DNA of 64,000 bases from Polyangia bacterium (GTDB lineage: Bacteria > Myxococcota_A > Polyangia > Palsa-1104 > JAEUJZ01): NCBI GenBank assembly GCA_044222245.1, contig JBGANQ010000002.1, positions 103,667 to 167,666 on the forward strand, written 5' to 3'. Within the stretch, counting starts at the first letter, position 1; the number at the start of each line of letters is the position of its first letter. The notes under the pieces are model-generated. The model searched no databases and was not told the origin of the DNA. It saw only the letters and a list, made by a program, of their open reading frames with translations. The translations under genes and the position numbers were made by a program. Positions 6,082 to 63,786 of this stretch are shown here, one piece after another.

Positions 6082-7727
6082 CGCGCGGTCGCCGGCGGCT
6101 GTAGCCAGGTGGCGCGCAGCCCGAGGTAGCTGGTGTTGAAGTAGTGGACAAAGCCGCGCACCGAGTCGCGCATCGCCTCGTGCTGGGCGGAGTGGAACAG
6201 GAAGACGTGCGGCGCCAGGTCGAGGACGCGGCGCTGCGCGGCGGCATAGATGCGGCGGCGCTCGTCGCCGTCCGCGGTGCGCCGACCGGCTTCTAGGAGC
6301 TTGTCGAGCTCGCCGTCGACCAGCCCGCCGACGTTCTGTCCGCCGCGGCTGTGCAGCGGCTCGTAGAGGAAGTCATCGGGGTCGGCCAGCCCCGACTCGC
6401 CCCACAGCGCCGCGGTGAAGCGGCGCTCGAGCACCTGCGGCAGAAACAGGCTCCAGTCGAGCACCCGCAGCCGCACCCGCACCCCGATCTCCTGCAGGTT
6501 GGCGACGATCACCTCGGCCGGGGCGCGCAGGAAATCGTAGGTGCTGGTGCACAGCAGGGTCAGCGTGAAGCCGCGGGGCAGCCCCGCCTGGCGCAGCAGC
6601 TCGCGGGCGCGACCGAGCTGGCGCTCCCGGTAGGGGCTGTCGCGCACGGCGAACTGGCTGCCCGGCGGCACGCTCGCCCCCGCCGCGGCGACGCCGCCGA
6701 CGCCAAACAGCGCCATGGCGACCACCGCCTCGCGGTCGATGGCGTAGGCCAGTGCCTGCCGCACCCGCGCGTCGTCGAGCGGCGGCACCCGGGTGTTGAG
6801 CACCAGCGAGCGGAAGTTGGTCCCGACGCCCCCGACGACACGCAGGGCGGGCTGGCGCTGCAGCAGCGCCACGTCGGCGGCCGGCACGTACTCGATGAAG
6901 TCGACGTAGCCGGTGCGCAGCGCCAGGGTGCGGGCGCTCGGGTCGGGGAAGAAGCGGAACTCGATGCCGTCGAGGTAGGGCAGGGGACGGCCGCTGCCGT
7001 CGCGCCCCCAGTAGCCGGGGTAGCGCTGCAGGACCAGGCGCGTCTGCGGCTGATAGTCGACCAGGCGAAACGGCCCGGTGCCAATGGCGACCCGCTGCAG
7101 CTCGTCGCCGCGGCGCACCACGTGGGCGGGCACGATGGCGTTCATGCTGAACGCCAGCTTCGACAAAAGCGGCCCGAGCGGGGTGCGCAGGCGGACCTGC
7201 ACCGTGTGCGGTCCGGTGGCCACCACTGCCGCGATGGCGGCGAAGTCCTCGGCGCGCGGCGAGGCCACGGCTGGATCCTTGAGGCGCAGCAGCGAGAACA
7301 CGACATCCGCGGCCGTCAGCGGCGCGCCGTCGTGAAAGGTGACGTCGCGGCGCAGCTCGAAGGTGTAGGTGCGGCCGTCGGGGGTGATGGTCCACGCGGC
7401 GGCCAGGCCGGGCAACAGCTGGCCGTCGGGGGCGAAGGTGACCAGGGTGTCGTAGACGTTCTCCAGCAGGTTGCGCGTCGCCGTGGAGTTGGTGGTGTGC
7501 GGATCGAGGCCGATCGGATCGGTCTGCATGCCGGCGCGCAGCACGCCGCCGTAGCGCGGCGTCGCGGGGGCGCTCGGCTGGCCCTGGGCGCGGCCGCCGA
7601 GCGTCACCACCAGCGCGACGAGCCCGACGGCCCCCGCGAGCGGCAAGCGGCGCGGCGCCCTCGGCTCGCGAGCGCTGGGCGGGACGGCAGCGGGACAAGC
7701 AATCAGGGGCAAGCGGCGGGTCGGCAT
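6078..7727 (-). CDS. ABC transporter substrate-binding protein, family 5 (peptide/nickel, DppA/OppA-like)
   Basis: 549-aa ORF with a signal peptide. YGGVLRAGMQTDPIGLDPHTTNSTATRNLLENVYDTLV is typical of SBP_bac_5. Confidence 0.9.
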   Translation of the reverse strand: MPTRRLPLIACPAAVPPSAREPRAPRRLPLAGAVGLVALVVTLGGRAQGQPSAPATPRYGGVLRAGMQTDPIGLDPHTTNSTATRNLLENVYDTLVTFAPDGQLLPGLAAAWTITPDGRTYTFELRRDVTFHDGAPLTAADVVFSLLRLKDPAVASPRAEDFAAIAAVVATGPHTVQVRLRTPLGPLLSKLAFSMNAIVPAHVVRRGDELQRVAIGTGPFRLVDYQPQTRLVLQRYPGYWGRDGSGRPLPYLDGIEFRFFPDPSARTLALRTGYVDFIEYVPAADVALLQRQPALRVVGGVGTNFRSLVLNTRVPPLDDARVRQALAYAIDREAVVAMALFGVGGVAAAGASVPPGSQFAVRDSPYRERQLGRARELLRQAGLPRGFTLTLLCTSTYDFLRAPAEVIVANLQEIGVRVRLRVLDWSLFLPQVLERRFTAALWGESGLADPDDFLYEPLHSRGGQNVGGLVDGELDKLLEAGRRTADGDERRRIYAAAQRRVLDLAPHVFLFHSAQHEAMRDSVRGFVHYFNTSYLGLRATWLQPPATAR

Positions 7728-50096: not shown

Positions 50097-50187
50097 GGAC
50101 CAGGCACGGTCCGGGCATGGTCCGGGCATGGTCCGGGCATGGTCCGGCCGTAGACCAGCCATGGTCCGGGACTGTCGCACTAGGTCC
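50097..50187. repeat. Cluster of GGTCC/GGACC motifs, including GGTCCGGGCAT x3.7 in perfect tandem
   Basis: GGACC at 50097. GGTCCGGGCAT at 50108, 50119 and 50130. GGTCCGGC at 50141, GGTCCGGG at 50163 and GGTCC at 50183. Confidence 0.9.
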
Positions 50188-50986: not shown

Positions 50987-52521
50987 GACCGCCCGCGCGG
51001 CTGCTCGGCGGCGCCCTCCTGCTTGTGCTGGCGACCCTGGCCAGCGGCGCCGCCGCGGCGCCCGGGCGGAGTCTTTCTGCCGGCGTCATTCGCGTCGCCT
51101 CCAAGCCGTTTACCGAGAGCTACATCCTGTCCGAGATGGTCGCTCAGCTCATCGAGGATGTGGGCGAGGCGAGCGCCGAGCGCCGCTTCGGACTCGGCGG
51201 TCCCAACCTGGTGGTCGAGGCGCTGCGCAGCGGCGAGGTCGACGTCGACGTAAACTACACCGGCGCCCTGCTTCACCTTTTCCTCAAGGACCGCAGCACC
51301 GCCACGATCGACGAGCTGCGCGCCGAGCTGCACCGCCAGGGCCTGGCGCTCGGCGGCTCGCTGGGATTTAACAACACCTACGCGATTGCGGTGCGGCGCC
51401 AGACCGCGGAGGAGCTGCACCTGCGCCAGGTCAGCGACCTGCGCGGACACCCCGAGCTGCGCGGCGCCTTCACCGCCGACTTCCTCAACTACGACGACGG
51501 CTTCTACAAGCTGCAGGAGGTCTACGGGGTCGCCCTGAGCGCGGTCAAGCCGATGCAGCACGCCCTTGCCTACCGCGCCTTGCACAGCGGCGAGATCGAC
51601 CTCACCGACGCCTACACCACCGATGGGACGCTGCCGCAGTTTGACCTGACCCTGCTGCAGGATGACCGCGACTTTTTCCCCAAGTACCTCGGGGTGGTCG
51701 TCGCCCGTCTCGAGCTCGTACAGCGCTACCCGGCAAGCTGGGCGGCGCTGCGGCGCCTGGATGGCCAGCTGGACGAGGCGACGATGATCAGCCTCAACGC
51801 CGGGGTCGACAACAAGCTGCGCTCGGTGGAAGAGACGGCGCGCACGTTCCTGCGCTCGCGCGGCCTGCTGCACCGCTCCGCAGCGGGCACCGCGATGGCG
51901 CGAGGCTCGGTCCTGGACTCTGGGCTGGCGGTCGCTACCTACGAGCACTTCACCCTGGTCTTGATCTCGCTGCTCCTGTCCTGTTTGCTCGGTGTTCCGC
52001 TTGGCATCATCGCCTTTGAGTACCGCAAGCTCGGGCAGGTGCTGGTCGCCGCGACCGGGCTTTTGCAGACCATTCCTTCGCTGGCGCTGCTCTGCTTCCT
52101 GATTCCGCTGCTCGGCATTGGCGCGCTGCCGACGATCTTCGCGCTGTTCATCTACGGACTCCTGCCCATTGCCCAAAGTACAATCTCGGGTCTGCAGTCT
52201 CTGGACAAGCGGCTCCTTGAGACAGCGCGGATCCTCGGCCTTACCCGCATGCAGCGGCTGCGCCTTATCGAGCTGCCGCTCGCCTCAATCAGCATCCTGG
52301 GCGGCATAAAGACGGCGGCAGTGATAAACGTCGCCACCGCGACCATCGCCGCGCTCATCGGCGCCGGTGGGTATGGCGGCTACATCACCCGCGGTCTGGC
52401 CATGAATGATCTGCCGACGATCTTAAAGGGCGCGATTCCTACCGCGCTCATGGCGGTCGGCTTTCACGGCATCTTCGAGCTCCTGGGCCGCTTCCTGATC
52501 CCCGAGGGGCTGCGCAGCTAA
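50983..52521 (+). CDS. Fused substrate-binding (OpuAC/OpuBC-like glycine-betaine family) and permease ABC subunit
   Basis: The N-terminal half reads VIRVASKPFTESYILSEMVAQLIE..DVNYTGALL..TDAYTTDG. The C-terminal half has 5-6 TM helices with an EAA-like loop (LETARILGLTRMQRLRLIELP). ATGA overlap with the ATPase gene. Confidence 0.85.
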   Translation: MRPPARLLGGALLLVLATLASGAAAAPGRSLSAGVIRVASKPFTESYILSEMVAQLIEDVGEASAERRFGLGGPNLVVEALRSGEVDVDVNYTGALLHLFLKDRSTATIDELRAELHRQGLALGGSLGFNNTYAIAVRRQTAEELHLRQVSDLRGHPELRGAFTADFLNYDDGFYKLQEVYGVALSAVKPMQHALAYRALHSGEIDLTDAYTTDGTLPQFDLTLLQDDRDFFPKYLGVVVARLELVQRYPASWAALRRLDGQLDEATMISLNAGVDNKLRSVEETARTFLRSRGLLHRSAAGTAMARGSVLDSGLAVATYEHFTLVLISLLLSCLLGVPLGIIAFEYRKLGQVLVAATGLLQTIPSLALLCFLIPLLGIGALPTIFALFIYGLLPIAQSTISGLQSLDKRLLETARILGLTRMQRLRLIELPLASISILGGIKTAAVINVATATIAALIGAGGYGGYITRGLAMNDLPTILKGAIPTALMAVGFHGIFELLGRFLIPEGLRS

Positions 52522-52576
52522 GCCGCCCTCGCGCCGCCCAGCAGGCCGCAGCTGCCGTCGGAGAGACGGACAAACA

Positions 52577-52605
52577 TTTACAAATTCCGTCTGGTAGCGC
52601 TTAAT
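52577..52605 (+). promoter_or_regulatory. Sigma70-like promoter TTTACA-N17-CTTAAT upstream of the split kinase gene
   Basis: Read directly from a locally AT-rich stretch. AAGAGG lies 7 nt before TTG 52625. Confidence 0.35.
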
Positions 52606-52624
52606 GATACGGTAAGAGGTCGTT

Positions 52625-53036
52625 TTGGTCGGCACGCAGATCGGTGTCTATAAGATCACGCACCTGCTCGGTGAAGGTGGGATGGGCACTGTCTACGAGG
52701 CAGTGCATGAGCAGCTTGGTAAGCGGGTTGCGATCAAGGTCTTGCGCAACGATATGGCGCGCAATTCCGAGGGCTTGACGCGCTTTTTCAACGAGGCCCG
52801 AGCGGTCAATTTGATCGAGCACCCGGGGCTGGTGCAGATCTTCGAGTTCGGCGAGCTGCCGAGCGGCAGCGCCTATCTGGTGATGGAGCACCTGCAAGGC
52901 GAGACCCTGAGCGCGCGCCTGAAGCGGCGCGGCCAGCTGCCAGAGCCCGAGGCGCTGTACCTGTGCTACCAGCTGGCCGCGATCCTGGCCGCCGCCCACG
53001 AGCGCGGCATCGTCCATCGGGACCTCAAGCCGAGTA
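52625..53036 (+). pseudogene. 5' fragment of an interrupted Ser/Thr kinase gene (subdomains I to VIb)
   Basis: YKITHLLGEGGMGTVYEAV..VAIKVL..YLVMEHLQG..GIVHRDLKPS. After 53036 the frame continues as nonsense that is antisense to the next gene. Confidence 0.85.
53028..53036 (+). repeat. Core copy 1 (left junction), AGCCGAGTA, inside GGACC-N13-GGTCC
   Basis: GGACC 53020-53024 and GGTCC 53038-53042. Confidence 0.9.
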
Positions 53037-53106
53037 CGGTCCAGCCGTGGGTGACCGCCGGCCCGGCGATCCGTGGCAGGGGCGCAGGAGGGACTTGGCG
53101 GCGCCC

Positions 53107-54255
53107 TCAGAAGCGGAACAGACCGACGAACGCCGGCGAGCCGACTCCCACGATCGGGCTGCCGAGGGCGGTCAGCTTGCCCGCCTTATCGATGCGGAAC
53201 ACCACCAGGTTGCCCAGGTTGGGCGTGGCCGCGGTGCGCTGGTTGGCGACCACAAGCAGGGTGCCGGTGTCGTCCACCGCGAAGCTGCGCGGGACCTGAC
53301 CGCGCGTCGGCTCGTTGCCGATCAGGGTGACCACACCAGTGGCCGCGTCCAGGGTGAAGATCGCGATCGCATCCAGGCCGCGGTTGGAGCCGTAGACAAA
53401 GCCGCCGCTTGGGTGGACGGCGAGCTCGGCGCCGGTGTTGTTGGTGGTGTTGCCGGCGGGCAGGGTGGACACGGTGGCTTGCGGCGAGAGCCTGCCGGCG
53501 GCGGCGTCGTAGGCGTAGGTGGTCAGGGTGCTGGCGGTCTCGTTGAGGCCGAAGGCCCACTTCTGGCTGGGGTGAAAGGCCAGGTGGCGCGGCCCGGCGG
53601 CCGCCGGCGGGCTGACCGCGGGCGGCGTGTTGGCGGTCAGCTTGCCGCCGGAAAAGCTGTACTGGGCGATGAGGTTGGCGCCCAGGCAAGGGACAAAGGC
53701 GTAGGCGCCGCTGGCGCTCGGGACCACCTGGTGCGCCTTGGCCCCCGGCGACTTGGTGTCGCTGGCGGCGCCGAGCGAGCCGTCCCCGAGCACCGGGAAC
53801 ACGGCGACCGAGCCGCCGCCATAGTTTGCCACCAGCACCGCGTCGCCCCCCGGACTGACCGCGACGTGCGCCGGTCCCGCCCCGAGCGTGCCGGTCTTGC
53901 CGCGCGCCGTGAAGCCGGCGGTGCGCGGGTCGAAGCCGAACGCCAGCACCTCGGAGCTGTTCTCATCCACCGCGAACACCCGCGCGCGCTGGGTGTCCAC
54001 GGCGAGGAACGAAGGGTTTGTCCCCGCCGCCGTCGCGCCCTTCAGGGTGAGCGTCCCCGCCGCCACATCGACCAAGAAGGCGCGGAGCTGCCCGTCGCTC
54101 GAGCCGGTGAGCGCGTACACCGGCCCAGGCGCTGCTGCCGCGTCCACCGCCGTCGCCCCGTCCGGCGTGCCGCCGTCTACGGGCGGCGAGCTGCTGCTCG
54201 TCTGCGAGCAGCCTAGGGTCGCCCACAACATCGTGACCAAGATTGGAAGTCGCAC
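53107..54255 (-). CDS. Lipoprotein, 7-bladed beta-propeller lactonase family (6-phosphogluconolactonase-like)
   Basis: GTG 54255 and lipobox LGC. LVANYGGGSVAVF, PRHLAFHPS, ELAVHPSGGFVYGSNRG and PRSFAVDDTGTLLVVANQ. Confidence 0.75.
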   Translation of the reverse strand: MRLPILVTMLWATLGCSQTSSSSPPVDGGTPDGATAVDAAAAPGPVYALTGSSDGQLRAFLVDVAAGTLTLKGATAAGTNPSFLAVDTQRARVFAVDENSSEVLAFGFDPRTAGFTARGKTGTLGAGPAHVAVSPGGDAVLVANYGGGSVAVFPVLGDGSLGAASDTKSPGAKAHQVVPSASGAYAFVPCLGANLIAQYSFSGGKLTANTPPAVSPPAAAGPRHLAFHPSQKWAFGLNETASTLTTYAYDAAAGRLSPQATVSTLPAGNTTNNTGAELAVHPSGGFVYGSNRGLDAIAIFTLDAATGVVTLIGNEPTRGQVPRSFAVDDTGTLLVVANQRTAATPNLGNLVVFRIDKAGKLTALGSPIVGVGSPAFVGLFRF

Positions 54256-54515
54256 CAGAGCAGTCTACCCGAGGGCCCGCCTGCCTGCACCTCGCCGTCG
54301 CCGAGCTGCCCTGGCGGCCGCCGGCGCTTGCCCGCCGCGCCGCCTGCACGGTCGGCTGAGCCATCCGCATTCAGTCCCGGCCGCGCGCCCGCCCGCAGTG
54401 TAGCGCCGGTCGGCGGGCCGCCTTCCCTCAAGCCGAGCAAGGTCGCCCGGCAGCTTGCCCGTCGCGGCGGCGCGCGCGGGGAAGGCTTGCGGAGCCGGTC
54501 GCGCGCCCCCGCCGG

Positions 54516-55133
54516 CTACAGATACTTTTCGATCTGGCCCAGGATCTCCAGCCGATCCACCAGGTCGGTGAGGTAGTCGAGCTTGTCGCTGGCCAGGGTG
54601 ATCACCGGCGAGAGGTCGTAGCGCGCAAACCAGTCCTCATAGAGCTTGTTGAGCCGCTGCAGGTAGGCGATGGGCAGGTCCTTCTCCATCGCTCGACCAC
54701 GCCGGGCGATGCGCTGGCGCAGGGTCCGCACCGGGGCGCGCAGGTAAATCATCAAGTCGGGCGGCGCCAGCGAGCCCGAAGCCACGGTGTACAGCTCGTG
54801 ATAGGTCTGCCAGTCGCGGCGATCGATGGCGCGCTGCTTGTAAAGGTTGCGCGCGAAGATCTCCGCGTCCTCGTAGATCGTCCGGTCCTGGACCACGGTG
54901 CCAGGCTCGCGCTCCAGCTCGCGGTGCAGGCGGAACTTGTGGGCGAGAAAGTAGATCTGAGACTTGAAGGCGTAGCCCTTCATGTCGCGGTAGAAGTCCG
55001 CGAGGTAGGGGTTTTGGTCATTGGGCTCGAGGAACGGCTTGAACCCGTACCACTTGCAGAGAAAGCCGACGAGCTCAGTCTTGCCAGCGCCGATGTTGCC
55101 GGCGACCGCGATGAAGCGCTTCTTGCTGGACAT
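54516..55133 (-). CDS. Deoxynucleoside kinase family protein
   Basis: P-loop AVAGNIGAGKT, then EPNDQNPYLADFY, FKSQIYFLAHKF and QDRTIYEDAEIFA. Confidence 0.85.
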   Translation of the reverse strand: MSSKKRFIAVAGNIGAGKTELVGFLCKWYGFKPFLEPNDQNPYLADFYRDMKGYAFKSQIYFLAHKFRLHRELEREPGTVVQDRTIYEDAEIFARNLYKQRAIDRRDWQTYHELYTVASGSLAPPDLMIYLRAPVRTLRQRIARRGRAMEKDLPIAYLQRLNKLYEDWFARYDLSPVITLASDKLDYLTDLVDRLEILGQIEKYL

Positions 55134-55168
55134 GAAATCGCCCTACGCTACGCCGCGGGGCGCAAAGT

Positions 55169-56482
55169 TTACAGAAATTCTGCACCGACCACCTGGGGCG
55201 CCGTCGCGCGGCCGCCCCGGCCCATGGGCTGCAGCCGGCCGTAGGTCAGCGACCGCCACAGCCACTCCAGCGGGCCAAAGCGGAAGCGCGTCAGCCAGGC
55301 GCGCGCGAACAGGATCTGGAAAAGGAACACGGCCAGCGTAATCGGCACAAGGTGGCTGGCCCGCACCCGACCGATGAGTCCCAGACCCCAGCCATAAAAA
55401 AGGAAGGTGCACAGGAGGCTCTGCATCAGATAGGTCGTCAGCGCCATCTGACCCACCGGCGCGAGCAGCAGAAGGACCCGCCGCCAGGCGGCGCGCTGCA
55501 GCAGCAGGACCACCGCCGCGGCGTACCCGCAGGCAAGGAGCATCGTCCCGAGCTCGGCGAGAACCGACAGCAAGCTCCCGACCGCCTCCGGCAGCACGAT
55601 CTTGCGCAGGCCGAGGAAGTAGCGCACGGCAGAGAGCGAGGAGCCGGCGAACCCGAGCCCCAGACCCCAGGCCGCGAGCTTGCGGAAAAGCGGCAGGCTG
55701 TCGGGGAGGCGCTGGAAGAGCCGCTGCGTCCCCGCCCAGTAGCCGATCAGGAAGTGACCCCAAAGGCCCGGAATGTACGGCACCCAGAACCTTCCCACAT
55801 GATAGTAGACCTGCTGCAGGTGCAGCTGGGTCAGCAGGCGCCGATCGTGGCCGGTCATGGCGGCGAGCAGCTGCGCGCGGTAGGCGTCGAAGTCGGCTGG
55901 CTTGGCCAGGATCGGCTCGATGGCCTTGGCGACTCTGGGCAGCGAGAAGACGAGCTGCGGGATAAGGGCCAGCGCGAACGCCCACAGAAGGACGCGGCTG
56001 CCGCGCTGGCGCCGAAACAACAGCAGGCCCACGCCGGCGAGCGCGTAGCTCCACAGGATGTCCCCCCACCACAGCAGCAGCACATGGCCGATGCCGATAA
56101 GCGCCAGCGCCGCCATCCGGCGCAGGTGCGTCCCGACCGCGCTGCGTCCTCCCGCTTCGGCGCGCTGGAGCTGCAGCGCGAACCCCAGACCGAACAGGAA
56201 GGTGAGCAGCGCCATTGCCTTGCCGTTGACAAACACGCCGAGCAGGACCAGGAACACGCGGTCGAGCACCCGGGTCTGCGCCATCAGCGTGGCGCGCGGC
56301 ATGAACGCGCGGCCGCTGAACCAGGGCACGGTGTTGGCAAGCAGCACCCCATAGAGCGCGCAGCCGCGCAGCACGTCCAGGACCGCGAGGCGCTCGCCCG
56401 CTGCCGTGGGCGCCGCCGGTGCCGCGGCCAGGGCCGCTGGGTCTGGGTCGCCGTCTGCCGCGCGCTGGATTGCCAGGTCCAT
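55169..56482 (-). CDS. DUF418 (YeiB-like) polytopic membrane protein
   Basis: RLAVLDVLRGCALYGVLLANTV.. and about 10 hydrophobic segments. C-terminus reads ..RFGPLEWLWRSLTYG. Confidence 0.75.
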   Translation of the reverse strand: MDLAIQRAADGDPDPAALAAAPAAPTAAGERLAVLDVLRGCALYGVLLANTVPWFSGRAFMPRATLMAQTRVLDRVFLVLLGVFVNGKAMALLTFLFGLGFALQLQRAEAGGRSAVGTHLRRMAALALIGIGHVLLLWWGDILWSYALAGVGLLLFRRQRGSRVLLWAFALALIPQLVFSLPRVAKAIEPILAKPADFDAYRAQLLAAMTGHDRRLLTQLHLQQVYYHVGRFWVPYIPGLWGHFLIGYWAGTQRLFQRLPDSLPLFRKLAAWGLGLGFAGSSLSAVRYFLGLRKIVLPEAVGSLLSVLAELGTMLLACGYAAAVVLLLQRAAWRRVLLLLAPVGQMALTTYLMQSLLCTFLFYGWGLGLIGRVRASHLVPITLAVFLFQILFARAWLTRFRFGPLEWLWRSLTYGRLQPMGRGGRATAPQVVGAEFL

Positions 56483-56599
56483 GCACGGGAGTATACCTGC
56501 CCGCGCCGCCGCAGCCAGGCGCCGCTCGCCAGCCTTCCGCAGGCGCGGCCGCGGCAGCGCGGAAGGTCTGCGCCGGCGCCGCCCTCGCGGCGGACCGTG

Positions 56600-56608
56600 A
56601 GCCGAGTA
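56600..56608 (+). repeat. Core copy 2, AGCCGAGTA, inside GGACC-N13-GGTCA
   Basis: GGACC 56592-56596 and GGTCA 56610-56614. It lies in the intergenic region between the DUF418 and oxidoreductase genes. Confidence 0.85.
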
Positions 56609-56821
56609 AGGTCACCCGTGACGGCGACCCCCCGCAGCATTCCGCCTCCGCGCGTCCGGCTCGGCCCTCTGCGGGCCTTAAGCCGGAACGATGGTCAGTG
56701 CCGGCTGCGTCCGCGGTCGACCGCACCTGCCGGGCCGCGGCCCGCGCGTCTCGGGGTCGGGGTCGCGGGCGGGCGCGGCAAAAGGGTTGTACGCCGCCGC
56801 CGTCCTGGCCACAATCATCGC

Positions 56822-59092
<2,271 letters not shown>

Positions 59093-59254
59093 TCCGCCTT
59101 CCCCGCGTCTCCTGCCCACCCTCCTTCGCGCCGCCGCGCTGGCCTCGGCCTGCCCCGCCGCCGGCGCAGCGGCAGGAGCCGGAGCCCTCCCGCCGCCCTT
59201 CCCTCGGCCGCGCGGAGGCCCGGCCAGCGCCGGGGGGCCGCGCCTTGGACCTTG

Positions 59255-59263
59255 AGCCGAGTG
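59255..59263 (+). repeat. Core copy 3, AGCCGAGTG, preceded by GGACC-N3 and followed by ACATC
   Basis: GGACC 59247-59251. AGCCGAGTGACATC matches the right junction AGCCGAGTAACATC at 13 of 14 positions. Confidence 0.85.
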
Positions 59264-59369
59264 ACATCGCGCCGCATCCAGCTCGTCGGTGAGGCGCAGG
59301 TGGGGATGGGAGCGGACAGCTTGCGGACAGGCTCCCGCGGGAGCTGCAGTCCTGCGCGCGGTCAGCAGC

Positions 59370-61142
59370 TCAGCGGCGCTGGATCATCTGCTCGAGGTTG
59401 TACATCTGCCGGGCCTTGGGCGGCGCGGCGGCGGCGGGGCTTGGCGAAGGGGGTGACTTGGAGAGGTCGGCGGCGCTCGGGTCGGCGTCGAAGTTGTACT
59501 GCGAGCGCTCCCGCTCCCGCTGCCGCTCGTTTTCGACCTGCTGCTGCTCGAAGCGATCCCACATCGCCCGCGGCAGCGTCAGCGCGTAGGCGAAGTCGAA
59601 GTGCTCCCGCTTGCTCGGCGCCACATCGAACCGCCAGGTCAGCAGGCCGTTGGCGTCCTTGTAATCGGCCATCCGCGAGGCGCCCATGAACTTGGTCTCG
59701 ATGCTCGGATCCGCCGAGACCGGGAACTGGTCTTGGATCAACAGCTGCCGGCTCTTGCCGGAGTAGTTGGCGATCTCGATCTGCCACTGGTTGGTGATGG
59801 TGACCTTCTTGGCGAACACGCCCGACCCCTCGACATCCCCCTTGAGCAGGGTGCGCTTGACCTGCAGCCGCTGATCGGGACCCAGGTAGATGTCAAAGTC
59901 CTCGCCCGCCGCCGCCAGGTGGCTGAACGCCGAGGTCCCGACGAAGTTACCGTCGAGAAACACCGAGACCTTGCCCAGCAGCAGGGGGATCCCTGTGCCA
60001 TTATTCAGCCGCGCGCGCAGGAACACCTGGGCCGTCAGCGAGGGAATCGCGACGTGCAGCAGGTTGGCCGCCAGCTTGCTTGTCTTCAGCGTGACCTGAT
60101 GATCCGCGTTATCACTGGCGATCGTCTCGCGCCCGGGGAGCTGCACGGTCAAGGTCGTCGAGGCGAGCGCCGCCCCGGCTGCGGACTCCGCCGGAGCATT
60201 GTCCTCGGCGCGACTGTCGGCGCCTCCCGCGCGCCGCGCGCTCCCGCCGGGCGGGGTGAGCGAGCCTGCCGTCACCCGCCACGCTTGCAGCATGCCGGGC
60301 GCGGTGCCGACGGCGGGGCGCGCGGTGGACAGGGTCATGCTGACGTCTTCCCAGGCCTCGCCCGTGGTCTGCCGGATGTTGGCGTTGGAGACAAGGTAGT
60401 ACGTCCCCCCTTCCGCCGAGCCGCGCAGGTCGTACAGCGGCGTCCACGAGACGTTGGTGACGGTGTACTCCAGGGACACCTCGCCTTCGACCCCGGGCTT
60501 GCCGTGATAGGTCACATCGACCTCAAAGGCCGAGCGGCGGCGCGCCGTCATCGCCTCGCTCAGCTTGCGGGCCGCCTCGTCGCGCTCGCGCTGCAGGTTC
60601 TGGACGAGCAGGTTGGCGGCGCGGATCTTGACCTGGTAGCCGCCGCGCCGCTCTTCCATGAACTCGACGGCCGCCTTCCAGCCGTCCGTCTTGATCGTGC
60701 CGAGCCGCAGCTCGTGATCGCTCTGCGCCGTAGTCAGGGCTGCGAGGTTGCCAAGCAGGCGGAGCTGCTCGGTAAAGTTGGCGAGCCGGTCGCGCTCGGC
60801 GTTGAGCTTTTGCTCCAGCTGGTCGACGGCCAGCTTGAGCGGGTCGGTCAGCCACTCGCGCTCCGAGGCGGGCTCGGTCGGGCGCACCGAGACGCCGGTG
60901 ATGGTCACCCCCTTGCCCGCCGCGCGCACCGAGTCGCGCACCAGCGCCACGGGCAGGCTGTGAAAGCGCACGGCGCCGCTTCCCTTATCGGCCGGCAGCG
61001 CCTGCACGCGACGCACCACGGCGCGATCGGAGAACACGAGCACCGAGTCGATCTTGCCGGTAACCGGCAGCACGGGCGTCTCCGCCCGGGCCGACTGGGT
61101 AAAAAGAACGAGCAGCGTCGTGAGCAAGCACTTCCGGATCAT
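59370..61142 (-). CDS. DUF4139 (mucoidy-inhibitor MuiA-like) secreted protein
   Basis: ATG 61142 with AGGAG 7 nt upstream and signal peptide MIRKCLLTTLLVLFTQSARA. VLVFSDRAVVRR..AVRFHSLP..WTPLYDLR..VFLDGNFVG. Confidence 0.75.
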   Translation of the reverse strand: MIRKCLLTTLLVLFTQSARAETPVLPVTGKIDSVLVFSDRAVVRRVQALPADKGSGAVRFHSLPVALVRDSVRAAGKGVTITGVSVRPTEPASEREWLTDPLKLAVDQLEQKLNAERDRLANFTEQLRLLGNLAALTTAQSDHELRLGTIKTDGWKAAVEFMEERRGGYQVKIRAANLLVQNLQRERDEAARKLSEAMTARRRSAFEVDVTYHGKPGVEGEVSLEYTVTNVSWTPLYDLRGSAEGGTYYLVSNANIRQTTGEAWEDVSMTLSTARPAVGTAPGMLQAWRVTAGSLTPPGGSARRAGGADSRAEDNAPAESAAGAALASTTLTVQLPGRETIASDNADHQVTLKTSKLAANLLHVAIPSLTAQVFLRARLNNGTGIPLLLGKVSVFLDGNFVGTSAFSHLAAAGEDFDIYLGPDQRLQVKRTLLKGDVEGSGVFAKKVTITNQWQIEIANYSGKSRQLLIQDQFPVSADPSIETKFMGASRMADYKDANGLLTWRFDVAPSKREHFDFAYALTLPRAMWDRFEQQQVENERQRERERSQYNFDADPSAADLSKSPPSPSPAAAAPPKARQMYNLEQMIQRR

Positions 61143-61364
61143 CACCAGGCTCCTGTGCAAAGGCCAAGTTCGCGCGCGATGCGGTGCTGGGGATGAACGT
61201 GTGAGCCCCTGCAAGGATCTATCGACGCTAGCCGGGCGCCGCAGAGCCATTTGCGCCGGAGGTCCCGAGGCTCCCGGGAGGTGGGCGCTACCAAGATCTG
61301 TCCGCAGCCCCTCCCCACGCTGCGCGGACAGCTTCCCGAGGCATCTCACTTGGAGTCGACTATT

Positions 61365-61373
61365 AGCCGAGTA
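61365..61373 (+). repeat. Core copy 4 (right junction), AGCCGAGTA
   Basis: Followed by ACATCATGCTGGTC, which is the continuation of the kinase reading frame. Confidence 0.9.
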
Positions 61374-62467
61374 ACATCATGCTGGTCGCCGACTCGGCCA
61401 TGCCCTCGGGGGAGCGGGTGAAGCTGCTCGACTTCGGGGTCGCCAAGCTCGCCATCGCCCTGCACGCGGCGGACAGCCAGGTGCGCACGCACGCCGGGCA
61501 GACCCTGGGCACCCCCCAGTACATGTCGCCCGAGCAGTGCCGCGATGTCAGTCAGGTCGATGGGATGACCGACGTGTACGCCCTGGGCGTCATCCTTTAC
61601 CAGATGCTTTCGGGGCAGGTGCCGTTTATAAGCTCGGGCGAGTTTGCCATCGCCGCCATGCACCTTTACGAGCCACCGCCGCCGCTGCAGTCCCGGGCGC
61701 CGCAGGTGACCGAGCTCACCGCGGAGCTTGTCCACCGCATGCTCGCCAAGAACAAGGAAGAGCGCCCGACCATGGCGCAGGTGCTGACGGTGCTGCAGAC
61801 CATGGGCATCAACGTCACCGCCAGCACCCAGAAGGCCTCGGCGATCTCGCTTGGCGGGCAGTCGGGGTCGATCTCGATGGCCGACATCCAGGCGGCCGAG
61901 CGCCTGGGCACGCTCGGTGAGCTGAGCGGAACCAGCGGTCGCAGCATCCCGGCGGCGCTGCTGAGCGCGGCGATCCCGGTGGTGCCGGCCAACAACCCAA
62001 CGACGCTCGGCACCAGCACCGGGCAGCTGACCCACCGCTCCAGCCGCCTGTTCTGGGGGGTGACCGCCGCCGCGGGGGCGAGCGTGCTGGCCGTGACGCT
62101 GCTCGCCAGCGGCCTGCTTAGCGACAACAAGACCGCGACCACCGCGCCGGTGCGCTGGCAGGTGAGCACGCGGCCGCCGGGGGCGACGGTGCTGCGCTCG
62201 GACAACGGCACCATCCTCGGCAAGACGCCGTGGCACTACGAGCAGCCGGCGAGCGCTGGCAAGCTGCAGGTCAGCATCCAGTACACCGGCTACCAGACCA
62301 ACACCCTGACCCTGGACAGCGGCCGCGACGAGACCCTGGAGCTGACCCTGGTGCCGATCCCGGCGCCCAAGGTCGAGCCGCCGCCGCCGCCGCCGCCCAA
62401 GCACAAGAGCCGCTCCCACAAGGCCAAGCCCGACGAAGAGGGCGATCCCAAAGAAGAGCTGCCCTAG
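61374..62467 (+). pseudogene. 3' fragment of the interrupted Ser/Thr kinase gene (subdomain VIb Asn to XI, plus a TM segment and C-terminal domain)
   Basis: (N)IMLVADSAMPSGERVKLLDFGVAK..GTPQYMSPEQ..DVYALGVILYQML..RPTMAQV. An in-frame TAG at 61364-61366 immediately precedes CCG AGT AAC. Confidence 0.85.
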
Positions 62468-62476
62468 CCGCGCCGG

Positions 62477-63625
62477 CTACAGCAAAGGGGCGACGCGCTG
62501 CGCCACCTCGTCGTGGAACCACTTGACCGCGGCCTCGATCTGACCGATGCGAAAGTGGCTGTCGGCGCCTGCCCGCAGGCCGGCCTGGATCGACTCGGCG
62601 ATCGCCAGATCCTCGCGCTGAAACACCGAGCCTTCGATGAGCTGGAAGGTCTTGTCCCAGTAGCGGCGCTGCTCCTCGGTCTCGGGCGGCCGCGGGATGA
62701 GCATCCGGTGGTGGTAAAGCAGGTGCTCGGGGCCGTCGGGGAAGATGGTGAGCAGGGTCACCCAGTCGGGATGGAACACGAGGATGGTATTGGGAAACAG
62801 CAGATAAAACGGCGTCGTCATCGCCCGCAGATCCCAGCGCTCCGGCGGCAGCTCGCGCGCCTGGAGGAGCGTCTTGCGCGCCCCGATCGAGCGGCTGTGC
62901 GGCGGCAGCGACCGCACAAGGACATTGTCGAGAAAGAACCGCGAGATGGTCTCGCGGTGCAGCGAGCGGACGTGGTAGCCCTCCAGGAAGGCATCGATGA
63001 GCAGCTTCCAGTTGGCCGGCCGGCGACCGGTCGCCTCGTGATGGACGACATGGGTGCCAAGGCCCAGCCCCGTGAGCTCGGCGGCGAGCGGACCGAGATA
63101 GGAGTCGATCGGCAGCTTGGCGCCGCGCCCGCCCGGCTGGACAAAAAGGAGGCCGCAGCGCTCGGCCAGCGGCACCCGCACAAGCCCCGCGTCCTCGTCG
63201 CGCAGGCTGGGAAAGCAGTCGCGCCGCGGCACCCGCAAAAGGGCGCCGCCGAGCTCGTACGACCAGGCGTGGTAGCGGCAGACAAAGGCGCGCGCGTTGC
63301 CGCGTCGCTCGCTGACTAGCTGGGTCCCGCGGTGGCGGCAGACGTTGAGGAAGGCGCGCACCTCGCCGTCGGGCGAGCGGACCAGGAGCAGCGGGATCCC
63401 CGCCGCGTCATGGGTCAAAAAGTCGCCCGGCTCCTTGAGCTCGGAGGTGTGGCCGACGACCAGCGGCAGGCCTTGGAACAGCGCCCGCTGCTCGGCCTTA
63501 TAGAACTTCGGACAGGTGTACTGCTCGACGGGAATCAGCCAGTCTTGCGGCGCGGCGGCGGCGGGGCCCGGCTCGGCCATCGCCAGCAGTTCGGTCAGCA
63601 GCTCAAGCTCCAGCGCGCGCTCCAT
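62477..63625 (-). CDS. Rieske [2Fe-2S] aromatic-ring-hydroxylating oxygenase alpha-subunit-like protein
   Basis: Rieske motif CRHRG..(17 aa)..CRYHAW, with a catalytic domain downstream. ATG 63625 lies inside track ORF 62477..63739. Confidence 0.85.
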   Translation of the reverse strand: MERALELELLTELLAMAEPGPAAAAPQDWLIPVEQYTCPKFYKAEQRALFQGLPLVVGHTSELKEPGDFLTHDAAGIPLLLVRSPDGEVRAFLNVCRHRGTQLVSERRGNARAFVCRYHAWSYELGGALLRVPRRDCFPSLRDEDAGLVRVPLAERCGLLFVQPGGRGAKLPIDSYLGPLAAELTGLGLGTHVVHHEATGRRPANWKLLIDAFLEGYHVRSLHRETISRFFLDNVLVRSLPPHSRSIGARKTLLQARELPPERWDLRAMTTPFYLLFPNTILVFHPDWVTLLTIFPDGPEHLLYHHRMLIPRPPETEEQRRYWDKTFQLIEGSVFQREDLAIAESIQAGLRAGADSHFRIGQIEAAVKWFHDEVAQRVAPLL

Positions 63626-63786
63626 GCACCCACGGTAGCATAGACCGCGGCGGCGCCCTGGAAGGGGCAGCGCGCAGCGGAGGAGGGCCCCGCGGATCGC
63701 TCGCGTCGTGGAGGCTGGCGGCGGGACGCGGCGGTCCACGGGACCCTTCTTCGCTGCGCGCTGCCGGGGCGCGCGGGGTGACCGGC

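Follow-up and report, generated by a model that had tools for sequence, protein, structure and literature searches.

Hairpins at recombination cores within a split Polyangia kinase gene as probable arm-type binding sites of a kinase-targeting integrative element

The window analysed here, a stretch of 64,000 nt (positions 103,667 to 167,666 of contig JBGANQ010000002.1), sits on a 238-kb contig of a Polyangia bacterium assembly (GCA_044222245.1; 9.59 Mb, 69-70% G+C). It carries a Hanks-type Ser/Thr kinase gene which is interrupted by an insert of 8.3 kb within the HRDLKPSN codons of its catalytic loop. Three GC-rich inverted repeats inside this insert, termed hairpins 1 to 3 in the following, had been noted in a preliminary description as conserved structures in front of crossover-like cores. 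We are confident that they are parts of recombination-site arms. Probably, they serve as inverted binding sites on double-stranded DNA, located in the right (P) arm of an integrative element that targets kinase genes, rather than as folded DNA.

The kinase is split at HRDLKPS|N (codons ..GAC CTC AAG CCG AGT AAC..), and four tandem, integrase-less cassettes of 1.4-2.7 kb with one or two genes each lie between its halves (Table 1). Every cassette is flanked by a 9-bp core, AGCCGAG(T/C)(A/G). The open reading frame (ORF) at 52625-53299 matches the Pkinase profile and continues as junk after ...GIVHRDLKPS, while the ORF of the C-terminal half (61379-62467) begins with ...(PS)NIMLVAD. An intact orthologue of 503 aa is found in a genome of the same genus (G001), directly downstream of the same OpuAC/permease gene as in the window; it is approximately 95% identical to the N half and 68% identical to the C half. 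In an alignment of both window junctions with the empty site of G001, whose attB reads AGCCGAGCA, the only block common to attL and attR is AGCCGAGTA, which is present at the first and the fifth junction. Sharing nothing but a short core is likewise a property of lambda-type attachment (att) sites. Both kinase halves remain open. Against G001, dN/dS amounts to 0.12 in the N half, 0.18 in the kinase part of the C half and 0.43 in the tail (dS 0.5-0.8). These values and the open halves are compatible with a recent insertion as well as with continued use after excision, and they do not separate the two.

The three inverted repeats, including the bulged C of hairpin 2, are present in the sequence as reported before, and so is the word GCGCGGA, which is common to all three right arms. 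Their stems end 34, 37 and 34 nt ahead of AGCCGAGT at 56600, 59255 and 61365, respectively. The preliminary description had assigned such a hairpin to each core except the leftmost one. This holds for these three cores, but a further core at 54431 had been missed, and its right arm has no hairpin of this kind. At random positions of the genome, a perfect inverted repeat of 8 bp (loop 12-26) ends 33-36 nt upstream in 0.36% of cases, and one of 7 bp in 1.1%; hence, two perfect repeats and a bulged one among four non-left cores are far beyond chance. Hairpins 1 and 2 have the geometry of hairpin 3, i.e., the 18-nt spacer, a distance of 33-36 nt to the core and GCGCGGA, and differ from it in their hexamers (TTCCGC and CTCCCGC, respectively).

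For a search of relatives, a covariance model of 95 positions was trained on 14 copies from the genome together with the three window arms. It matches 35 sites in this genome, 46, 18, 17 and 11 sites in four genera-level relatives, and a few more in others. The matches follow the design of hairpin 3, which we call the type-B right arm: ..CCGC(A/G)AAnC(T/C)GTCCGC-N17-19-GCGGAC(A/G)GATTC..-N~30-core. In one relative (G003, an 11-Mb assembly of 30 contigs), type-B arms abut kinase C-halves. The earlier expectation of further copies is thus borne out many times over for hairpin 3, but for neither hairpin 1 nor hairpin 2.

What is conserved among the type-B copies was studied in two alignments. In the training alignment, 89.8% of the cells pair, compared to 27-57% for slid partners; covariation does not exceed that of shuffles (56/500), and the sole two-sided change comes from the window's own rows. 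Pairs were then tabulated in 40 independent copies from five other genomes, none of which had been used in training. Pairing is retained in 87-100% of the copies at each of the six inner pairs (GTCCGC/GCGGAC), always with a single pair type, so that these pairs carry no covariation information. At stem position 2, 15 copies show a Watson-Crick pair, 11 a T.G and 14 a mismatch. The position just outside the stem (-1) pairs in 16 of the 40, whereas the next two (AA/TT) are kept in 33. The conserved part reads AAnCnGTCCGC / GCGGACnGnTT. As judged from these sequences, the conserved feature is a palindromic sequence with apparently uncontacted positions, not a helix. The two stem positions that differ on both sides between hairpins 1 and 3 were found as reported, but their interpretation as compensatory changes is probably not correct; they would reflect motif subfamilies and not the keeping of a pair.

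The interruption of the kinase is not a singular event. Six-frame ORFs of the whole assembly were scanned using each half of the intact G001 kinase as a query, and it was recorded whether both matched the same ORF. Both halves are found in about 157 ORFs, which together with 23 divergent but intact genes gives approximately 180 intact kinases. In addition, 32 N-halves end right after HRDLKPx (class 1) and about 24 right after ..VHR (class 2), and orphan C-halves matching both classes are present. With some 56 broken N-halves facing some 180 intact kinases, the catalytic loop is the site of a split in about a quarter of the kinase genes. The sequences flanking the breaks are conserved between loci, and they lead to a tyrosine recombinase.

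The genome encodes about 30 paralogous lambda-type tyrosine integrases, several of them directly beside kinase C-halves. Clade A comprises five nearly identical genes of 394 aa, each ending 87 nt ahead of a kinase C-half. Pfam Phage_integrase (PF00589) is recognized in the representatives of three clades, along with HSLRG...LGH..Y motifs. More distant paralogues adjoin tRNA genes, the classical neighbourhood of integrases. The order of integrase, right arm and kinase C-half recurs in a second metagenome-assembled genome (MAG) labelled 'uncultured Myxococcales' and in a Polyangia MAG, and at least 175 protein clusters of the integrase family exist in public data, two of which are named from Haliangium and Polyangia. 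A conserved excisionase was not found beside the clade-A integrases, whose genes share no related upstream sequence beyond about 120-290 bp.

An AlphaFold2 model of the integrase, computed from an alignment of 45 sequences (mean pLDDT 79.5), starts with three strands (8-15, 18-25 and 28-34) and a helix (37-51) at pLDDT 82-90, followed by helical core-binding and catalytic domains. In a Foldseek search, full-length lambda Int (1z1b_A; 359 aligned columns, rmsd 15.9 A) ranks first and Tn1549 Int next, while the integron integrase (IntI 2a3v) and Cre rank lower. The modelled order of domains is suggestive of the heterobivalent integrases, whose N-terminal domain binds arm-type sites; lambda-type members of this group have an extra N-terminal domain made of a beta-sheet plus a helix.

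The arms on both sides of the cores carry family-specific hexamers (TTCCGC, ATCCGC and GTCCGC; TTCCAG in class 2), which are distinct from the core and occur as direct and inverted repeats at fixed distances from it. The words NTCCGC/GCGGAN are the most enriched ones in 27 left and 21 right arms (6-12-fold). Many left arms show TTCCGC-N40-GCGGAA or GATCCGC-N40-GCGGATC about 37 nt past the core, and the clade-A right arm reads stop-N11-TTCCGC-N5-TTCCC-N27-GACGGAA-N12-core. The motif tracks the integrase clade: ATCCGC twice (contig C137), GTCCGC three times in direct orientation with a spacing of 11 bp (C139), and TTCCAG twice in class 2. The 12-14-mer of the type-B palindrome, GCGGAC(A/G)GATTCGCG, is also found as a direct repeat in left arms. 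The matching left-arm family (..TCGTCGGTGAG..GCGGACAtgcTGCGGACAGATTCGCGG, with two direct GCGGACAtgcTGCGGACAGATTCGCGG repeats) has at least 13 copies, among them the left arm of cassette 4 and one at a second split kinase, on contig C150. In the arms of cassette 4, GCGGACAG/CTGTCCGC occurs four times in about 220 bp, as a direct pair at 59312 and 59323 and as an inverted pair at 61298 and 61324, against a genome-wide background of 0.67 per 10 kb. Since sequence rather than pairing is conserved, since the motif also forms direct repeats, and since its variant follows the integrase clade, the palindrome is best read as two head-to-head binding sites for one protein.

Table 1. Features of the interrupted kinase locus (positions refer to the window)
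Feature	Position	Strand	Description
Kinase N-terminal half	52625..53036	+	Pfam Pkinase profile positions 1-127; ends ...GIVHRDLKPS
Core 1 (attL), AGCCGAGTA	53028..53036	+	kinase on the left, element on the right; aligned to the G001 empty site and attR
Cassette 1	53037..54430	.	7-bladed lactonase gene 53107-54255 (-); Pfam PF10282, E = 3.7e-75
Cassette 1 right arm	54363..54439	+	ATCCGC 54363-54368, TCCC 54375-54378, GGCGGG, then core 2; without hairpin
Core 2, AGCCGAGCA	54431..54439	+	extra inner core
Cassette 2	54440..56599	.	deoxynucleoside kinase 54516-55133 (-) and DUF418 membrane protein 55169-56482 (-); Pfam
Cassette 2 left-arm motifs	GCGGGGAAGG 54476-54485, GCGGAGCC 54489-54496		CTT between the two; from sequence
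Hairpin 1	56533..56566	+	CCTTCCGC 56533-56540 / GCGGAAGG 56559-56566; 18-nt spacer; 51 nt from the minus-strand DUF418 start (56482)
Core 3, AGCCGAGTA	56600..56608	+	
Cassette 3	56609..59254	.	molybdopterin oxidoreductase 56822-59092 (+); Pfam PF00384, PF01568, PF04879
Cassette 3 left-arm motifs	TTCCGC 56640-56645, CTCCGC 56646-56651		from sequence
Hairpin 2	59186..59218	+	CCTCC(C)GC 59186-59193 / GCGGAGG 59212-59218, one bulged C; 94 nt past the oxidoreductase stop codon
Core 4, AGCCGAGTG	59255..59263	+	
Cassette 4 left arm	59264..59345	+	two direct GCGGACAG repeats, 59312-59319 and 59323-59330; member of the left-arm family
Cassette 4 cargo, DUF4140/DUF4139 protein	59370..61142	-	Pfam PF13598, PF13600; start probably 61142, alternatively 61250
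Hairpin 3	61298..61331	+	CTGTCCGC 61298-61305 / GCGGACAG 61324-61331; 18-nt spacer; type-B right-arm family
Core 5 (attR), AGCCGAGTA	61365..61373	+	preceded by an imperfect kinase mimic, GGCATC..GAC..T, and by TAG in the kinase frame
Kinase C-terminal half	61374..62467	+	Pfam Pkinase positions 135-258; NIMLVAD...LLDFGVAKL..., PEGA domain

Taken together, we propose the following working model. The attachment site of a small element would be the catalytic-loop codons of Hanks-type Ser/Thr kinases. The N-terminal domain of the integrase is predicted to bind the hexamer-containing 12-14-mers while its catalytic domains act on the core, so that arm and core would be linked through the protein, as they are in lambda-type intasomes. 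Because of this bridging, the fixed distance of 33-36 nt to the core would be a requirement of geometry. The apparently compensatory changes would be concerted changes of half-sites between the motif subfamilies TTCCGC, CTCCCGC and GTCCGC, since both half-sites would have to be read by the same protein variant. The cassettes of the window would have been inserted successively (accretion) by integrases supplied in trans, and may now be immobile. The type-B arm would lie in the 5' region of an adjacent gene transcribed away from the junction, where its sites may double as an operator. Of the 34 type-B arms of the genome, 4 have the start of an integrase gene about 180-196 nt upstream, on the opposite strand; its place in the window is held by minus-strand cargo genes (DUF418, start 56482; DUF4139, start 61142 or 61250), and two of the hairpins therefore lie 5' of minus-strand genes.

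The right arm of cassette 1, ATCCGC-N6-TCCC...GGCGGG, is like the main right-arm type of the genome, and its layout resembles the TTCCGC-N5-TCCC...GACGGG right arms that adjoin integrases; in its left arm, a degenerate pattern, ATCCG...ACTTGGCGG, resembles the main left-arm type. A search of the genome with nhmmer returned further copies of the left arm at the fourth junction and of the right arm at the fifth junction, and none of the left arm at the first, the right and left arms at the second and third, or the right arm at the fourth junction. A BLAST-type search of the third and fourth junction regions in 22 relatives gave GC-rich chance matches and one GTCCGC-type arm in G002, which was reached via the palindrome.

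Several observations weigh against binding of an integrase to the hairpins. No other copy of the arms with hairpin 1 or 2 occurs in the genome or in the relatives, so that the membership of these two would follow from their position, the shared GCGCGGA and the architecture, and the left-arm partners of the motifs in cassettes 2 and 3 are merely approximate (GCGGGGAAGG, CCTCCGC). A family integrase is absent from the window as well as from its 238-kb contig, for which reason the window cassettes are regarded as non-autonomous; according to Pfam, none of the four carries any mobility gene. Pfam names no N-terminal arm domain in the integrase either, and over its whole length the model superimposes on lambda Int with a high rmsd. 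We accordingly hold the assignment of this domain, which follows from the order of secondary structure elements in the model, to be suggestive only. It is the architecture that points to the integrase as the binding protein; an accessory protein encoded by the element or by the host could take its place. Moreover, palindromes that reach 12-14 bp may still be able to form a cruciform by extrusion.

Cruciform or single-stranded DNA is the core of an alternative in which the folded hairpin itself is the recombination substrate, as in integron attC sites, in attP of the CTX phage or at the ends of IS200/IS605. Inverted repeats at a fixed distance from the core, perfect 12-14-bp palindromes in some relatives and a cassette array that superficially looks like an integron would suit this explanation, as would the concerted variation of stem halves between the window copies. 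Folding energies, computed with ssDNA parameters and compared to dinucleotide shuffles, give a divided answer: hairpin 3 folds better than its shuffles (z = -3.0), hairpins 1 and 2 do not (z = -0.69 and -1.25). Furthermore, positions within the stem are often mismatched in the 40 independent copies without any covariation, and the palindrome does not include the crossover core, which is 34 nt away. The same motif forms direct repeats in left arms and beside integrases, where a hairpin is impossible, and the associated recombinases resemble lambda and Tn1549 Int rather than the integron integrase. We therefore consider folded DNA unlikely. The preliminary description had derived two possibilities from the fixed distance to the crossover core, folded recombination sites and sites for accessory proteins; the distance is confirmed, and it is the latter possibility that fits.

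If, instead, the palindrome were mainly the promoter-operator of the adjacent gene and close to the core by coincidence, the integrase genes on the opposite strand of four type-B arms, and the two cargo genes in the same place in the window, would be readily explained. This is quite unlikely, since hairpin 2 follows a plus-strand gene, left arms contain the motif too, and the constant distance is the one to the core and not that to the gene starts (51 nt and 48-156 nt). A sigma-70-like promoter was not called either, although the scan is weak for this phylum. An RNA stem-loop, e.g., a 5'-UTR element or a small RNA of the element, could draw on the T.G combinations at stem position 2, which are wobble-compatible on the plus strand. 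True mismatches are more frequent there, covariation is missing, the strand of the flanking gene differs between copies, and the hairpins match no Rfam family (a search of 52000-63000 at E <= 1 gave just two hits at chance level); this makes an RNA very improbable. Scarcely credible, finally, are chance inverted repeats or ordinary intrinsic terminators. In a genome of 70% G+C, two of the three folding energies are within the range of shuffles, but the positional probability is 0.4-1% per site, and more than 120 family copies exist across genomes. The combined terminator and promoter scan called nothing at any of the three hairpins; none has a T-run behind its GC stem, and two are found at the 5' side of minus-strand genes. 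The earlier statement that they are not simple terminators is in good agreement with these results.

Three other origins of the split locus were tried and rejected. An assembly chimera is contradicted by kinase halves that rejoin in frame and by the same arms abutting kinase halves in the 30-contig relative. A group I or group II intron disagrees with the lack of an Rfam match, with cargo on both strands and with the integrases found. Microhomology or a copy error does not account for cores that are accompanied by conserved structured arms and adjacent integrases.

Returning to arm-type binding sites as the preferred explanation, their closest functional analogue would be the arm-type sites of lambda-like attP. 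In lambda (P1, P2, P'1-P'3), HP1, L5 and Tn916/Tn1549, short motifs occur in both arms, in direct and inverted orientation and at fixed distances from the core, as they do here. In contrast to the lambda-type systems with their single tRNA or intergenic target, the target here is a protein-coding motif of the catalytic loop, shared by about 200 paralogous genes. With sites within about 100 bp of the core, the arms are very short; several motif subfamilies coexist, most copies consist of cargo only, and binding of Int to the arms is a prediction. The stack of cassettes finds its closest analogue in cis-mobilizable elements (CIMEs) and in the tandem accretion at att sites of integrative and conjugative elements of the ICESt1/ICESt3 type. 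There as well, segments without an integrase are stacked at one site and have att sites related to those of autonomous elements. In the window, five cores bound four cassettes without a recombinase, and the arms of cassette 4 match integrase-linked arms elsewhere. Unlike CIMEs, the cassettes have one or two genes (1.4-2.7 kb), stand four in a row without conjugation genes, and occupy a site inside the reading frame of a kinase.

Integron cassettes share with the window an array of small cassettes without recombinase and with an imperfect palindrome close to the crossover at the end of each. However, the crossover of attC (R' box, G|TTRRRY) lies within the palindrome R''-L''...L'-R', whereas the core AGCCGAGTA is found 34-37 nt 3' of it. 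In attC, a structure with extrahelical bases is conserved through covariation; here it is the sequence, with neither covariation nor a pattern of extrahelical bases. Integrons have a platform of IntI with attI/Pc, while an attI/Pc platform is lacking here, no integrase of the family lies on the window's contig, and the recombinases of the family are lambda/Tn1549-like. The genes of the window, moreover, stand in both orientations with upstream regions of their own. In view of the position of the crossover, the kind of conservation and the lack of a platform, attC is a look-alike only.

Elements that intervene in genes and are excised by site-specific recombination are known as skin in sigK, SPbeta in spsM, gin in gerE and the elements of Anabaena nifD/fdxN/hupL (PMC4191935, PMC5595907). 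As in the window, such an element lies inside a coding sequence, both halves are open, and precise excision would restore the gene. What differs is that the elements found here interrupt dozens of paralogous genes, all at one motif, instead of being a single developmental interruption with its own recombinase. It is conceivable, though rather unlikely, that the islands constitute a reversible switchboard operated by recombinases. About a quarter of the kinome would then be kept split with both halves under purifying selection (dN/dS 0.12-0.18 in this case), and Int at the palindromic arm sites, which overlap the 5' region of the integrase gene in autonomous copies, would decide when kinases are restored by precise excision, e.g., during development or stress in Polyangia.

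A full-text literature search found no paper describing kinase-targeting integrases, and the element family behind the hairpins appears to be undescribed and unusually prolific. The hairpins provide a sequence handle on it, since the model of 95 positions in which they are included matches more than 120 copies across five genera-level relatives. The elements insert into those codons of Hanks-type kinases that are most conserved, stack cargo there and interrupt about one kinase gene in four in this genome; genome annotation will mislabel such loci as kinase pseudogenes or fragments. With its related integrases, arm motifs and short att sites, the family is a natural set useful for studies of recombinase retargeting, and for asking whether myxobacteria use gene interruption for regulation.

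Some further features of the arms deserve mention. The main left-arm palindrome is two-tiered, TTCCGC-gacgggg-CGAAGT-gcc...gg-ACTTCG-gt-GCGGAA (e.g., C137:72745, C100:54560 and C138:3464), with a second, inner inverted repeat in which one mismatch usually occupies a constant place. In type-B right arms, about 30 nt upstream of the core mimic kinase sequence (GGCATC..GAC..). The base ahead of the core is usually T, both in the window (61356-61373) and in most type-B right arms, which creates TAG where the kinase has AAG (Lys). A possible role of this in-frame stop is to prevent read-through from the element into the C-half; otherwise, it may do no more than delimit the overlap on its left side. 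Between AGCC and AA, the letters of the overlap vary among copies of one arm family; this is reminiscent of the tolerance of heterologous overlaps in elements of the Tn916/Tn1549 type, with which it might be compared.

Class-2 insertions cut the kinases two codons earlier than class 1 (e.g., C150:5004, C127:8305, C145:31868 and C26, strand coordinates 59608), and in their right arms TTCCAG-N4-TTTCCAG is accompanied by a perfect (I)VHRDLKP copy. Both classes are present in some kinases, in which the 18-nt loop codons are left as an island between two elements. At C113:92576-93928, an insert of 1.35 kb at the class-2 position of a kinase has a 369-aa serine recombinase (RVALYVRVSTDKQ...) on the opposite strand, i.e., a different type of recombinase at the same target. 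Right arm, core and left arm are often contiguous (C139:89464-89558, C145:98556-98648, C19:745-940, C151:6930-7102), sometimes with a right arm of the GTCCGC type next to a left arm of the TTCCGC type. Since contiguous arms recur across the genome, tandem stacking of elements from different subfamilies is common and not peculiar to the window. On C23 (strand + ~7400-7550), one right arm (TTCCGCcgctgTTCCCgcggg...GACGCGG) is tandemly duplicated ahead of a kinase C-half.

Two repeats of the window lie apart from the split kinase. An 11-bp tandem repeat, GGTCCGGGCAT, is present in four copies at 50097-50162, between an egtD-like operon and a betaine-type ABC importer. At 63666-63765, in the region of the 5' end of a Rieske oxygenase gene, there is an inverted repeat of 35 nt with 86% complementarity and a spacer of 30 nt.

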